A stretch of 64,000 nt of DNA from an uncultured delta proteobacterium. GTDB lineage: Bacteria > Desulfobacterota > Binatia > Binatales > Binataceae. Positions 21,189-62,300 of this stretch are shown piece after piece. The notes under the pieces are model-generated. The model was not told the DNA's origin. It worked only from the letters and a program-made list of their open reading frames with translations, and made no database searches. The stretch's first letter is position 1. Every line of letters begins with the position of its first letter. The DNA lies in the NCBI GenBank assembly GCA_963756155.1, contig CAVWMQ010000010.1:95672-159671 (forward strand), given 5' to 3'. Both the position numbers and the translations under genes were made by a program.

Positions 21189-24100
21189 ATGCGCTGCACG
21201 AAGTGCGGCATCGACAATGCCGCAGGTTCGAGATTCTGTAATCAGTGCGCGACGCCGCTCAGCCGGGTGTGTCCAAAGTGCGCTCATCTGAACGCGCCTG
21301 ATGCGAAGTTCTGCGCGGAGTGCGCCGCATCGCTGACTTCGGACGTATCGAAATCCACCGCAAGCACTTCTTCAACGTCAGCGGTGCGGATCGCGCCGGA
21401 GCAGACCGATTCTGAGGTCGCCGACGGCGAGCGCAAGACGGTCACCGCGCTGTTCGCGGACATCAAGGGCTCGACCGAGCTGGAGCAGGACCTCGATCCT
21501 GAAGAGGCGCGCGCGATCGTCGATCCTGCGCTCAAGCTGATGATCGACGCGGTGCACCGCTACGACGGCTACGTGGTGCAGTCCACCGGCGACGGGATTT
21601 TCGCGATGTTCGGCGCGCCGCTCGCGCACGAGGACCATCCGCAGCGCGCCATTCATTCCGCCATGCGGATGCAGGACGAGGTCCGCCGCTACGCCGACCG
21701 CTTGCGCGCCGAAGGGCGTGCGCCGCTGCAGATACCGGGTCGGCGCGAACACCGGCGAAGTAGTGGTGCGATCGATACGCACCGGTGAAGCCGAAGACCG
21801 AGTACACCGCGATTGGGCATCCGGTGAACCTGGCGTCGCGGATGCAGACGCTTGCCAATCCCGGCTCGACCGTGATCGCGGAGAGTACGCGCAAGCTGGT
21901 CGAGGGATATTTCACGCTCAAGTCGCTGGGCGCTTCGCGGGTCAAAGGCGTCAGTGAGCCGGTGAATGTTTACGAAGTCATCGGCCTCGGGCCCTTGCGC
22001 ACGCGCCTTCAGCGGGCGGTAGGGCGCGGGCTGGTGAAGTTTGTCGGCCGCAATCGCGAGATGGACACCCTGAAGCACGCGGCCGAGCAGGCCAGGGCGG
22101 GGCACGGGCAAATCGTCGCCGCGATGGCGGAGCCGGGAGTCGGCAAGACGCGCTTGTTTTACGAGTTCAAGGCGACTTCACAATCCGGCTGGATGGTGCT
22201 GGAGACGTTTTCGGTCTCGCACGGCAAGGCGTCTGCGTTTTTGCCGGTGATCGATCTGCTCCATGGCTACTTCAAGATCACCGGCGATGACGACACGCAC
22301 GCACGGCGCGTCAAGGTCAACGGCACGGTGCTCACGCTCGATCGCGCGCTGGAAGACACACTGCCGTATCTGTTCGGGCTGCTGGGAATAGTGGAAGGCG
22401 ACGACCCGCTTGGCCAAATGGATGCGCAGGTCCGAAAAGCGCGCACGCTGGACGCGATCAAGCGCATCCTGCTGCGCGAGTCGCTCAACCAGCCGCTGAT
22501 GGTCGAGTTCGAGGACCTGCACTGGATCGATGACGAGACGCAGGCGCTGCTCAACCTGCTCGCCGACTCGATCGGCACCGCGAAGATCCTGCTGCTGGTG
22601 AACTATCGGCCCGAATACTCGCATCAGTGGAACAGCAAGACCTACTACACGCAGTTGCGGCTCGACCCGCTCGGCAAAGAATCGGCCGAGGAAATGCTCT
22701 CGTCTCTGATCGGAGACGGCAAGGATCTGATCCCGCTGAAACGTCTCATCATCGAGAAGACCGAGGGCACGCCGCTGTTCATGGAAGAGGCCGTGGACAT
22801 GCTGCTGGAAGAGGGCGCGCTGGTGCGCAACGGCACGGTGAAGCTTGCCCGGTCGCTGAACCAGCTAAAGATTCCGCCAACGGTGCAGGACATCCTGGCC
22901 TCGCGTATCGATCGTCTGGCGCCGGACGCGAAGGATCTGCTGCAGACGCTGGCGGTGATCGGAATGGAATTCCCGTTCGGCCTGGTACAAAGGGTGGTCC
23001 CAAAATCGGAAGACGAGCTGGACCGCTTACTGCATGCTCTGCAGCTCGCCGAGTTCATCTACGAGCAGCCGGCAGCGGGCGAAAGCGAGTACATCTTCAA
23101 GCACGCGCATACGCGGGAAGTCGCGTACAACTCCCTGCTCAACGAGCGCAGAAAGCTCCTTCACGAACGGATTGGTTCTGCGATTGAAGCGTCATTCGCT
23201 CAATCAATCGATGATCATCTGAGCCAGCTTGCTCACCATTACAGTCGCAGCTCGAACGTCGAAAAAACGGTCGAGTACCTGGACCGCGCAGGGCGGCAGG
23301 CGATCATGCGCGGTGCCTTCAAGGAAGGCGAGCTCTATGTGAGGCAGGCGATCGCCGCGCTGCGCACGGCACCCGAAACCCCTGAGCGCACAAACCGGCA
23401 ATTCATTCTCCAGAACGCACTCTGTCAGGCGCTCTTCATGACGAGCGGCTTCACCACGGATGAGACTGTGCAGGCGACCCGGCGCTTGCTGGAGCTGGGC
23501 GAAAAAACTGGCGACCCGGAGCAACTCATCGCCGCGCTGAGGTCCGTTTGGCTCTCGACCTCTTCGCAGGGCGATTGGACCGCCGCCCAGCAGATCGCCG
23601 AACGACTAATAGAGACTGCCCAGCGCTGCGGGAATCGCTACGGTCTGGCCACGGCCCACTACTATCAGGGATGGTTCTTCATGATTCGTGGCGAGCTGAC
23701 TCGGGCAATGCAACATTTCGAGGCGACGATCGCGTCATACCGCGATGCTGACTTCTACGGGGACATCTGGAACTCTCGGGTCGGGGCGCTGGCGCGGATG
23801 GGTGCGGTGTTGTGGCATTTGGGGTTCGCCGATCAGGGTCGCGCGAAAATGCGTGAAGCGATTTCCTCGGCCGAGCGCTTGAAGGCTCACGGAAGTATGG
23901 CGGTCGTGCTCGTGCACGCCAGCCTTCTGTACATAGGTTTACGCGAGCACGCCAAGGTGGATGAATATGCCGCACGTCTGTTCACTCTCGCGAGCGAACA
24001 ACAACTCCCCCAATTTGTTACCGGCGCTGCGGTTGTTCGCGGATGGGCATTGGCCGAGCTGGGTCAGATTGAGGAAGGCCTCGCGCTGATTCGCCCAGGA

Positions 24101-59325: not shown

Positions 59326-62300
59326 CTAGCCGTGATGATAGTCTTGCAGCGCGCGCACCTCGAGCGGCCCGCTCTTGAGCGCCAGGATTCCTTCGACGGC
59401 GGCCTGCGCGCCCGCCATCGTCGTGAAGTATGGAAGCCTCAGTTCCAGCGCGGTGCGCCTAATCGAGAAGGAGTCTGCGGTGCCGGTCGCATCGGGCGTG
59501 TTTATCACCATCGCGATCGTCCCCTGCTTCATCGAATCCACGATATGCGGGCTCCCTTCGAGCACCTTGTTCACCGTCGCGCAGCGGATGCCAAGGCGCT
59601 CGATGTGGCTTGCGGTACCGCGCGTCGCGACCAGCTCGAAACCGGTCGCTATCAACCCGCGTGCAATCGGCTCGAGCTGCGGCTTATCCTCGTCACGCAC
59701 GCTGATGAACACGCACCCCGATTTCGGCAAGTCGGATGACGCCGCGAGTTCCGCCTTGGCGAACGCCATCGCAAAGGTGGTGTCGATCCCCATCACTTCG
59801 CCGGTCGACTTCATCTCCGGGCCGAGAATCGTATCGACTCCCGGGAACCGCACGAACGGGAACACCGATTCCTTCACCGCCACATGTGTGGGAACCTTCT
59901 CGGCGGTGAAGCCCAACTCGCCCAGTTTCGCGCCGGCCATTACCTGTGCCGCGAGCTTCGCCAGCGGCACGCCAATCGCTTTGCTGACGAACGGAATGGT
60001 GCGCGATGCGCGCGGGTTTACTTCCAGGATGAAGACTTCGCCGCCGAAGATCGCGAACTGGACGTTGATCAGACCAACCACATTTAGTTCGCGCGCGAGC
60101 ACTTTGGTTTGCGCCGACAATTCCCGCTGCAGCGCCGCGCTCAGGCTCCGCGGCGGCAGCGCGCACGCGCTATCGCCGGAATGAATTCCGGCGTGCTCGA
60201 CGTGCTCCATGATTCCGCCGATAACCACCGTTTCGCCGTCGGAGATTGCGTCGACGTCGACTTCGATCGCCCCCTGCAGGTAGCGATCGATCAGCAATGG
60301 ATGCCGCTCGGAGGCTTGCAGAGCCACCGCTACGTAGCGGCGGAGCGCTTGCTCGTCGACGATCACTTCCATCGCGCGTCCGCCAAGCACGTACGAAGGC
60401 CTGATCAACACCGGGTAGCCGACCTCGGCGGCGCCCGCGACCGCCTGGTCCAGTCCACGCGCGAGCACGCCCCGGGGCTGCTTGAGACCGAGCTTTTCGA
60501 CCAGCACGTTGAAGCGCTCGCGGTCCTCCGCGCGATCGATCGCATCGGGACTGGTGCCGAGAATCGGGACACCGGCCTTCTCCAGCGGCATCGCCAGTTT
60601 GAGCGGGGTCTGGCCGCCGAACTGCACGATCACGCCGAACGGCTTTTCGCGCGCGACGATCGCAAGCACGTCCTCGAAGGTGAGCGGTTCGAAGTAGAGG
60701 CGATCCGAAATATCGTAGTCGGTCGAGACGGTCTCGGGATTGCAGTTGACCATGATGGTCTCGAAGCCCGCCTGTTTGAGCGCCATGCTCGCGTGCACGC
60801 AGCAGTAGTCGAACTCGATTCCCTGCCCGATCCGGTTCGGACCGCCGCCCAGAATGATGATCTTGCGGCGGTCGGTCGGCACGGCTTCATCTTCGCCCTC
60901 GTAGGTCGAGTAGAGGTACGGAGTGAAGGCTTCGAATTCGGCGCCGCAGGTATCGACGGATTTGTAGACCGGCGTTACGCCGGCGGCGATTCGCGCTTGG
61001 CCGATGGCGGCTTCGTCCTGACCGTTGCGGCCGCGTAGATCGGCGATTGCGCGATCGGAGAATCCCATCGGCTTGAACTCGCGGAAGAATTCCGCGCTGA
61101 GCGGCTCGGTCGCGACGCGGGTCTCGACGCTCACCAGGTCCGCGACTCGCATCGATAAACCAGGGATCGATCTTGCTGAGATCGTACAGTTCTTTGGGTT
61201 TGAGCCCGAGGCGAAGCGCGTCGGCGAGATGATACAGGCGATGGCTGCTCGGACTTGCGACCTGGGCGCGGATTTCGGCCAGCGCCTGGGCGCGGTTGGT
61301 TTCGGTGAGCCGGCTCTCGAGCCCGTAGGAGCCGATTTCCAGTGAGCGCAGCGCCTTTTGCAGAGACTCCTTGAAGGTGCGCCCGATCGCCATCACCTCG
61401 CCCACGGATTTCATCTGCGGCCCGAGTTCGTCCTGCGCGCCGCGGAATTTCTCGAACGTGAAGCGCGGAATTTTGGTCACCACATAATCGATCGTCGGCT
61501 CGAAGCAGGCCGGCGTCATCCTGGTGATGTCGTTGGGAATTTCGTCGAGGCGGTAGCCGACCGCGAGCCGCGCCGCGATTTTCGCGATGGGGAATCCGGT
61601 CGCTTTGGAGGCCAGCGCAGAACTCCGCGACACGCGCGGGTTCATTTCGATAACGACCATGCGGCCGGTGGAGGGCTCGATCGCGAACTGGATGTTGGAG
61701 CCGCCGGTATCGACGCCGATTTCGCGGATGATGCGCTGCGAAGCGTCCCGCATCAACTGATATTCCTTGTCGGTCAGCGTCTGCGCCGGCGCCACCGTGA
61801 TCGAATCGCCGGTATGCACGCCCATCGGATCGAGATTCTCGATCGAGCAGATGATCACGACGTTGTCGGCGCCGTCGCGCATCACCTCGAGCTCGAACTC
61901 TTTCCATCCTTCGACCGATTGCTCGATCAGCACTTCGTGATTGGGCGACATCTCGAGCCCCCACGCCATCTTGGCGCGGAAGTCGTCGGCGGAGCGCGCG
62001 ATCGAGCCGCCGGTGCCGCCGAGGGTGCGCGAGGGGCGGATGATCACCGGCAAGCCGAGCTTCTGGCGCGCGCGTTCCGCGTCGGCGAGCGAGTGCGCGA
62101 TTTCCGAGCGCGGCACCTCGAGACCAATCGCCAGCATTGCCTGCTTGAACAGGTCGCGATCCTCGGCCTTTTTAATCGCGGGGAGCTTGGCGCCGATAAG
62201 CTCGCACGAATAGCGCTCCAGCGCGCCCGACTCAGCGAGCTCGATCGCGAGGTTGAGAGCGGTCTGCCCACCGACTGTCGGCAGCAATGCATTGGGGCGC

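Follow-up and report, generated by a model that had tools for sequence, protein, structure and literature searches.

Five genes in the 64-kb stretch of DNA analysed here (the window) are interrupted by seven frame breaks, and the question they raise is whether the organism itself carries broken or recoded genes or whether the deposited sequence departs from the genome that it represents. The breaks are genuine features of the sequence as deposited. In three-frame translations and Pfam matches each of them amounts to one extra base along the direction of translation, as the original prediction had held (seven breaks, all +1), and comparison with relatives and paralogues gave one surplus base at each break in every case. 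The affected genes and their breaks are as follows, where G001 is a genome of the same genus.

21156 to 24526, plus strand: zinc-ribbon / class III cyclase / AAA_16 (STAND) / TPR gene, in frames 0, 1 and 2 (open reading frames, Pfam)
21731 to 21736, plus strand: break 1, frame 0 to 1; one extra base at 21728-21735 relative to all 19 listed paralogues
21786 to 21797, plus strand: break 2, frame 1 to 2; one extra base, at 21791 by the nearest paralogue
25828 to 28538, plus strand: valS (valyl-tRNA synthetase), in frames 1, 2 and 0 (Pfam, G001 alignment)
26103 to 26107, plus strand: break 3, one extra base in valS directly upstream of the conserved PGMDHAGIATQ; one-base gap in G001
27676 to 27681, plus strand: break 4, one extra base in valS where the anticodon-binding domain starts; G001 gap at 27677
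48598 to 49519, minus strand: DsbA-like gene of the thioredoxin fold, frame 1 to 0; its downstream piece matches Pfam Thioredoxin_4 / DSBA
49119 to 49126, minus strand: break 5, one extra base in the DsbA-like gene; G001 gap at 49119, gene-model shift at 49120
50494 to 51070, plus strand: gene of two repeated helix-turn-helix-like domains, frame 1 to 2; no Pfam family
50716 to 50736, plus strand: break 6, one extra base in the two-domain gene; junction at about 50729-50736 relative to homologues
59326 to 62542, minus strand: carB (carbamoyl-phosphate synthase large chain, 1072 codons), frame 1 to 0 (Pfam)
61146 to 61153, minus strand: break 7, one extra base in the carB oligomerisation domain; no homopolymer

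Wherever a break lies in a known domain, the Pfam domain runs across it. The cyclase gene matches DZR, Guanylate_cyc, AAA_16 and TPR_12, with Guanylate_cyc divided between frame 0 (profile positions 6-90) and frame 2 (120-179). This gene belongs to a large paralogous family, and relative to 19 of the 19 paralogues listed (9 loci in G001 and 10 places in G000, the genome under study) the window carries two net extra bases, which the nearest paralogue, 89% identical, puts at 21735 and 21791. In valS, tRNA-synt_1 covers positions 2-65 and then 67-412, and at break 4 the Anticodon_1 profile (1-146) begins in the next frame, in the third piece. The Thioredoxin_4/DSBA match of the DsbA-like gene starts immediately past its break, and the orthologue in a more distant genome, G005, matches the window in two frames by tblastn. 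In carB the CPSase_L_D3 profile is matched over 2-39 and then 41-79, and the window reads GACTCG at break 7 where G001 has GA-TCG. The two-domain gene sits in a stretch (49622-51163) without a G001 counterpart; intact homologous open frames of 190-297 aa occur in genomes G119, G102 and G090, and all three match frame +3 of the window to about 50736 and its frame +1 starting near 50729, with none of their residues left out.

DNA alignment with G001 places isolated one-base gaps opposite window positions 26103, 27677, 49119 and 61146, and the gene pieces at these breaks are stop-free and 85-88% identical to G001 DNA. The sequence flanking each of the seven breaks is fully conserved at the protein level, without stops or other lesions; Pfam and translations bear out the original statement that the protein is well conserved on either side. 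Dropping one base at a break yields an uninterrupted conserved protein, as judged by Pfam, G001, the 19 paralogues and the three homologues. Both valS and carB are indispensable, and own-genome searches found each to be single-copy in the assembly, which upholds the earlier point that essential genes are hit: there was no second valS, the other matches being class I synthetase paralogues 28-34% identical, and no second carB, the only other strong match being the gene's own other half.

No further in-gene frame break was found within the window. Our gene model, a frameshift-aware codon/hexamer Viterbi procedure, was too unspecific at low penalty and proposed several extra shifts there. Its shifts at 12962, 32733, 51848 and 52872/52920 have no corresponding gap in the G001 alignments, and the shifts at 2274/2377 were discarded as well, since that region resolves into two separate genes at penalty 9 and shows no in-gene event relative to G001. 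The model also missed break 6 and, at penalty 9, fused the two cyclase breaks into a single ‘-1’ call. Genome-wide it made 505 raw calls at penalty 10, 262 at penalty 15 and 170 at penalty 20. Filtering left G000 with 225 calls, or 41.5 per Mb; the corresponding rates were 4.6 per Mb in G001 (1 call over 218 kb) and 17.5 per Mb in G005 (7 calls over 400 kb). We set G005 aside as a negative control: it consists of 2 contigs, may itself be a long-read assembly and at penalty 10 drew 31 model calls over 400 kb. Where G000 aligns to G001, a net +1 gap backs 22 of the 29 ‘+1’ calls. A frame-changing gap of the correct class backs about 8-9 of the 16 ‘-1’ calls, and roughly one-third to one-half of the ‘-1’ calls fail validation. 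Given this poor specificity, the raw counts are only rough, including the split of 306 versus 199 at penalty 10, which is far weaker than the skew in the G001 comparison.

That comparison drew on 1.26 Mb of G001, to which 970 kb of G000 (12 contigs, 5.4 Mb, 92.85% complete) aligned at 80% identity or more. Within intact G001 gene calls, 48 isolated gaps changed the frame: 34 of +1 nt, two of +2, one of +29, nine of -1 and two of -2. The original prediction had proposed counting frameshifts genome-wide together with their direction, and at distances above 6 kb from any contig end the in-gene count was 31 insertions versus 2 deletions (binomial p = 1.3e-7). One- or two-base gaps outside gene calls numbered 73 insertions versus 62 deletions (Fisher p = 6.7e-6 relative to in-gene events). 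Within 6 kb of contig ends events were denser, and in genes 6 insertions stood against 9 deletions. An inclusive count made without the isolation filter (44 versus 16 interior single-base gaps) was rejected because natural codon indels split by the aligner had contaminated it, and was replaced by a cluster-based recount. This gave 30 insertion-only, 3 deletion-only and 1 mixed cluster in contig interiors and 6 insertion-only, 7 deletion-only and 3 mixed clusters at contig ends, so that by both counts interior insertions outnumber deletions about 10-15 to 1. One of the 30 interior insertion-only clusters, the 13-gap cluster at 40179 of contig C11, had been considered a raw-read-like patch and is actually a diverged, poorly aligning stretch; it stays in the count. 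As a reciprocal control over the same 970 kb, 37 clusters break only a G000 gene and 6 only a G001 gene, a roughly six-fold difference, with a further 13 in calls of both genomes and 386 in neither. The events were strongly clustered, with 20 of 38 neighbour-to-neighbour distances below 1.5 kb and four insertions inside 500 nt of one gene on contig C7; examples of such clusters lie at 192.8-193.4 kb of C7 and 772.9-773.9 kb of C3. Lesions number roughly 50 per Mb of G001-aligned sequence, a rate that would amount to about 280 over 5.4 Mb. A tblastn comparison of 221 queries with the more distant G005 gave a weaker skew of 9 ‘+1’ to 7 ‘-1’ events; three of the latter fall in the interior of contig C4, which G001 covers thinly, suggesting that some interior patches may hold deletions too.

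The inserted bases themselves look random. The 34 single-base insertions comprise 8 A, 9 C, 7 G and 10 T, and they follow codon positions 1, 2 and 3 in 10, 12 and 12 cases. Only 8 of the 34 equal a neighbouring base, against 41% for a null of genome bases, and once inserted, 26 of them stand as single bases, six in runs of 2 and two in runs of 3. A homopolymer-length error signature of the Nanopore, 454 or Ion Torrent type was thus absent over these insertions. The suggestion that the sites lie in or next to short C/G runs describes about four of the seven in the window and does not extend to a genome-wide rule. The original prediction had seen no common slippery or Shine-Dalgarno-like motif in the window, and none emerged around the 34 sites, where information reached at most 0.26 bit at any position within 12 nt on either side. 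A methylation-motif idea, raised by GATC or CCCGGG near several window sites, found no support among the 34 either.

Together these data lead us to conclude, with a probability of about 0.84, that all seven breaks are consensus errors, single bases wrongly inserted when a metagenome-assembled genome was put together from error-prone long reads of modest coverage. An insertion-biased consensus error in an unpolished or low-coverage long-read assembly was the original proposal, and the excess of insertions, their randomness, their clustering and the essential genes that they hit all support it. Most likely, then, the genuine valS, carB and other three genes are intact in the organism, and the breaks are almost certainly not biological and hold no biological novelty. 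In thinly covered stretches, an insertion that happens to recur in enough reads could survive the consensus vote, and if insertions were the commonest error of the raw reads, the vote would amplify that bias until almost solely insertions were left. Polishing that clears deletions better than insertions might give the same picture. The change in the insertion/deletion split near contig ends, together with the clustering, ties the lesions to features of the assembly.

We also compared contigs from four short-read runs from soil (X1-X4) over 20 kb of the window that takes in four of the seven sites. Many are 99-100% identical to the window elsewhere, and among the rows listed a base is missing in some or all of them at three of the four sites, 21736, 21791/21793 and 26107, although these may be close strains or paralogues. 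At 26107 the base is missing in 3.62 of 3.62 depth in X2, 6.28 of 6.28 in X3 and 60 of 65.8 in X4, with the other 5.8 of X4 unaccounted for and the site without cover in X1. The sole listed contig spanning this position, from X3, has 18 other differences from the window in 716 letters and so may come from a close strain rather than the same genome. Over the cyclase region, where read depth is a sum across paralogues, the base at 21736 is missing in 12.1 of 38.1 depth in X1, 2.7 of 22.4 in X4, 0 of 11.9 in X2 and 0 of 4.9 in X3; that at 21791 in 3.83 of 33.9 in X1 and 10.4 of 29.5 in X4; and that at 21793 in 12.4 of 36.8 in X1, 6.34 of 6.34 in X2 and 3.3 of 13.7 in X4. Pattern scans of metagenome contigs across the valS and carB sites, with either length allowed, gave no match.

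The strongest rival, which we nevertheless consider unlikely, is that co-occurring strains were merged, the consensus keeping one base from each of two differing haplotypes and so gaining a base. The soil runs do hold several strains, with contigs 97.5-98.5% identical beside others 99.8-100% identical, which suits a merger, as do the clustering of the events and the substitution that accompanies the extra base at 26103-26107 relative to both G001 and the short-read loose end. Against this, the insertions show no enrichment beside third codon positions, the ones at which strains diverge most, just 7 of 34 gaps are flanked immediately by a mismatch to G001, and the altered profile at contig ends points to coverage instead.

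It is much less probable still that the extra bases are real mutations, and the five genes true pseudogenes in a decaying genome or in non-viable cells. The bases are present in the sequence as deposited, and the short-read contigs that lack them could be from sister strains. Weighing against this reading are the single-copy, indispensable nature of valS and carB, the conserved flanks free of additional lesions, and the symmetry of indels outside genes (73 versus 62) set against 31 versus 2 within them. Dependence on distance from a contig end is biologically meaningless, and the presence of three or four insertions within 0.5-0.8 kb of one gene also speaks against real mutation. A pseudogene would be expected to show relaxed constraint, such as stops, larger deletions or diverged sequence, and to be dispensable or backed by a second, intact copy; the pieces aligned to G001 are stop-free and conserved, and valS and carB have no such copy.

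Programmed +1 recoding that rejoins the frames, whether by ribosomal frameshifting, quadruplet decoding or transcript slippage, is highly implausible, even though all seven window breaks share one sign and the pieces are otherwise intact. The 34 sites lack a common motif, insertions follow any codon position, runs are at most 3 long, none of the 46 tRNAs has an unusual anticodon, and deletions and two-base insertions are present too. Moreover, orthologues are unbroken at the same places in G001 (valS, the DsbA-like gene and carB), in G005 (valS and the DsbA-like gene) and in three other genomes (the two-domain homologues). No better is the chance that the organism's DNA really holds the extra bases and that its genes, valS and carB among them, are expressed by way of a context-independent +1 correction at the level of RNA or ribosome, a mechanism not known in bacteria.

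Accepting consensus error as the source, the importance of the breaks is limited to the quality of gene and pseudogene counts for this genome. By rough arithmetic, the projected 280 or so indels would leave about one gene in twenty split or truncated. Split genes inflate pseudogene and gene counts and may depress the completeness estimate, and such errors can also yield spurious ‘novel’ short ORFs or mimic gene fusions and fissions. Findings from this genome that are based on interrupted or truncated genes are suspect, especially within a few kb of contig ends. As the insertions are of random bases and are not run-length errors, homopolymer-aware fixes would miss most of them.

Among known systems, the programmed +1 frameshift of prfB (release factor 2) likewise moves from frame 0 to +1. 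It relies on a conserved slippery site preceded by a Shine-Dalgarno-like element, and orthologues keep the shift, whereas the sites described here share no motif and have unbroken orthologues. A closer likeness is to the indel errors of long-read assemblies, which Watson and Warr reportedly described in 2019 as fragmenting gene calls. There, as here, an indel of one base leaves a conserved gene divided between neighbouring frames; such errors are common at low coverage and are cleared by short-read polishing. The long-read indels usually described are homopolymer length errors, often deletions, whereas here 26 of 34 inserted bases are unlike both neighbours and contig-interior lesions are nearly all insertions. 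Two accounts are reported to treat indel errors that fragment gene calls in Nanopore and PacBio assemblies and MAGs (PMC12007338, PMC8442456), and a third states that long-read MAGs under about 40-fold coverage retain indels that disrupt gene calls (PMC9262707). According to a section of one comparison of platforms, insertions are the commonest error of PacBio subreads and the least common of Nanopore reads, and 46% of PacBio subread indels lie in homopolymers, which is above the level here (PMC5553090). Errors of PacBio RS are elsewhere summarised as random and little influenced by homopolymers or GC (PMC4719071). The error profile of this genome fits PacBio continuous-read-type data better than Nanopore, as far as platform and coverage can be told from a consensus alone, and shares with PacBio continuous long reads an insertion bias, an even base make-up and independence from context, seen here in a consensus and there in raw reads.

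Each of the seven frame breaks in five genes put forward by the original prediction proved to be one extra base, as judged by three-frame translation, Pfam domain matches, gaps in DNA alignments to the same-genus genome G001, paralogues and homologues. Three-frame translation has conserved protein sequence switching frame at every site, and the breaks are placed as follows.

Cyclase-STAND gene (21156-24526): breaks at 21735 and 21791, placed by the closest listed paralogue (89% identity); the frame-0 piece matches positions 6-90 of the cyclase domain profile and the frame-2 piece 120-179 (Pfam)
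valS: breaks at 26103 and 27677, isolated one-base gaps in the G001 DNA alignment; tRNA-synt_1 positions 2-65 are followed by 67-412 in the next piece, with the anticodon-binding domain in the third (Pfam)
DsbA-like gene: break at 49119, an isolated one-base gap in the G001 DNA alignment; the thioredoxin/DsbA domain starts directly past it (Pfam)
Two-domain HTH-like gene: junction at about 50729-50736, with no residue missing relative to three homologues
carB: break at 61146, an isolated one-base gap in the G001 DNA alignment; oligomerisation domain positions 2-39 are followed by 41-79 in the next piece (Pfam)

The cyclase gene carries two net extra bases relative to all 19 paralogues listed (nine loci in G001 and ten places in the source assembly, G000). 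The family of this zinc-ribbon/cyclase/AAA_16/TPR gene is large: its paralogues, 68-89% identical across the cyclase core, number at least nine in G001 and at least ten in G000, on contigs C2, C3 and C12 of the latter and including several tandem copies at 234-245 kb of C3. The two-domain HTH-like gene matched no Pfam family and received no call from a frameshift-aware gene model, and its homologues in three other family genomes, intact open frames of 190-297 aa, match the window in two frames. Homologues of this gene occur in only 6 of the 120 other family genomes searched, and it lies in a stretch without a counterpart in G001 (49622-51163) that also encodes, on the minus strand (49734-50441), a fusion of an ArsR-like HTH protein with a membrane domain. 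Checks of gene-model candidates against the G001 alignments and under a higher penalty left no additional in-gene break in the window.

The window is positions 95672-159671 of contig C10 in G000, which comprises 12 contigs totaling 5.42 Mb at 62-63% G+C, with estimates of 92.85% completeness and 2.18% contamination, while the relatives compared are mostly fragmented and of 3.4-4.6 Mb each. Its few contigs, its incomplete marker recovery and the presence of its sequence in soil metagenome runs suggest that it is a long-read metagenome-assembled genome. The sole same-genus genome in the comparison set, G001, consists of 270 contigs and is 85-88% identical to G000 at the DNA level across syntenic genes. 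Aligning 1.26 Mb of G001 covered approximately 970 kb of G000 at 80% identity or more, and we counted frame-changing, isolated gaps with well-aligned flanks inside genes unbroken in G001. Among the 48 such gaps, G000 has extra bases in 37 (34 of one nucleotide, two of two and one of 29) and lacks bases in 11 (nine of one nucleotide and two of two). Farther than 6 kb from contig ends, 31 are extra versus two missing (binomial p = 1.3e-7), and within 6 kb of an end six are extra versus nine missing. Gaps of 1-2 bases outside gene calls, most of which are natural intergenic indels, number 73 extra versus 62 missing in contig interiors, so that genes and non-genes differ in their insertion/deletion split (Fisher p = 6.7e-6).

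Summing neighboring gaps yielded 30 extra, three missing and one mixed cluster in interiors, one of the 30 being a diverged, poorly aligned stretch, and six extra, seven missing and three mixed at contig ends. As a reciprocal control, the G000 gene alone was broken in 37 clusters and the G001 gene alone in six. The all-insertion pattern is thus neither chance nor peculiar to the window: insertions make up a share of about 0.9 in interiors, so an interior window with seven events is expected to show only insertions. A tblastn comparison with the more distant relative G005 (221 queries) gave nine ‘+1’ and seven ‘–1’ events; several of the latter fall at the C10 end and three in the C4 interior, indicating that deletion patches exist and that the real interior ratio may be somewhat below 15:1. 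Frame-breaking indels of both signs are dense in the outermost few kb of some contigs (C10 166-171 kb, C11 44-47 kb and C8 0-2 kb), where gene calls are not to be trusted.

The inserted bases themselves (A 8, C 9, G 7, T 10) do not follow the 62% G+C of the genome. The inserted base equals a neighbor in just 8 of 34 cases, compared with 41% for genome bases, and stands in a run of length 1 after insertion in 26 of the 34. Their codon phase is even, with 10, 12 and 12 falling after positions 1, 2 and 3. The lack of a shared slippery-type motif noted originally holds genome-wide, with at most 0.26 bit at every position within 12 nt of the 34 insertions. These insertions are neither run-length nor motif-linked errors, nor do they mark selection-shaped sites. 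The events also clump, with 20 of 38 neighbor distances below 1.5 kb; the clearest low-quality consensus patches are one gene with four single-base insertions in 500 nt and two single-base deletions (C7 192878-193342; deletions at 193211 and 193250) and one with three single-base insertions in 800 nt (C3 772984-773808). Overall, the lesions prove to be random insertions that cluster in patches and are specific to this assembly.

About 50 frame-changing events per Mb aligned project to roughly 280 genome-wide. The frameshift-aware gene model arrives at a similar order, with 225 filtered calls in G000 or 41.5 per Mb; in 218 kb of G001 its density was 4.6 per Mb. In aligned regions a net +1 gap coincides with 22 of 29 ‘+1’ calls; the ‘–1’ calls are less reliable, five of 16 being single-base deletions, three being really two insertions, one or two matching other frame-changing gaps and the remainder failing validation.

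Four soil metagenome runs from one study (X1-X4) contain 39-45% of the words sampled from window 20600-28600. The Logan contigs of these runs are short, most of them 0.5-1.4 kb at a depth of 3-9, and the occurrence of many at 99-100% identity to the window alongside others at about 97.5-98.5% points to several strains in the soil.

Depth with one base left out / total depth at the place; depths at 21736, 21791 and 21793 are sums over paralogues
21736: X1 12.1/38.1; X2 0/11.9; X3 0/4.9; X4 2.7/22.4
21791: X1 3.83/33.9; X2 0/10.3; X3 no cover; X4 10.4/29.5
21793: X1 12.4/36.8; X2 6.34/6.34; X3 no cover; X4 3.3/13.7
26107: X1 no cover; X2 3.62/3.62; X3 6.28/6.28 (listed contig with 18 other differences from the window in 716 letters); X4 60/65.8

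These depths, which cover three of the seven breaks, agree with the error reading without proving it. At 39012, within the first three codons of a minus-strand gene (37875-39020), the length of a G run (39009-39012) differs: one base is absent in X2 (7.36/7.36) and X4 (6.7/6.7), and X1 (0/6.44) and X3 (0/4.88) are the same as the window, which is either strain polymorphism or a further consensus error. Upstream of valS lies a terminator-like hairpin (25670-25720), and at 25695 one base is partly absent in short-read contigs of all four runs, where depth of up to 59.8 suggests repeated sequence. An intergenic repeat, some 55-60 nt long and containing a GC-rich hairpin, occurs at 19893-19956, 20070-20143, 25700-25757 and 28544-28600, the first two copies forming an inverted pair around about 110 nt. 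A blastn comparison of the 270 nt surrounding this pair with G000 yields 86 HSPs, and G001 matches the repeat dozens of times; the repeat resembles REP- or MITE-type elements.

Taken together, the seven breaks are almost certainly an assembly artefact without biological novelty. The insertion-biased consensus error proposed originally is supported by the genome-wide interior insertion excess, the random context and the clustering. In patches covered by few reads, an insertion shared at the same place by chance in enough reads would survive the consensus vote, which would steeply amplify any excess of insertions over deletions in the raw reads. Polishing that corrects deletions better than insertions may instead have produced the bias. 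A strain-merging artefact is unlikely, as the even codon phases speak against it. In valS and carB, real frameshifts would be lethal unless recoded. No second copy of either was found in the assembly, where the remaining valS matches are paralogous class I synthetases (28-34% identity) and the one other strong carB match is the gene’s own duplicated half. Recoding is contradicted by the lack of a motif common to the sites, by insertion after any codon position, by orthologues unbroken at the same places, by the lack of an unusual tRNA in G000 and by deletions and two-base insertions alongside the single-base ones. Pseudogene decay is at odds with flanks that are clean and conserved, with an insertion/deletion asymmetry that differs between genes and non-genes and with a lesion profile that depends on distance from contig ends. 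The artefact is a warning flag for every gene-content statement on G000.

Insertions are described as the commonest error type in PacBio subreads and the least common in Nanopore reads (PMC5553090), and PacBio RS errors as random, with almost no dependence on homopolymers or GC (PMC4719071). Long-read metagenome-assembled genomes below approximately 40-fold coverage are stated to need short-read polishing, in an account that describes Nanopore consensus errors as homopolymer indels (PMC9262707). The insertions in G000 lie mostly outside runs, and their profile fits PacBio continuous-read-type data better than Nanopore data; we put this inference of the platform at roughly even odds.
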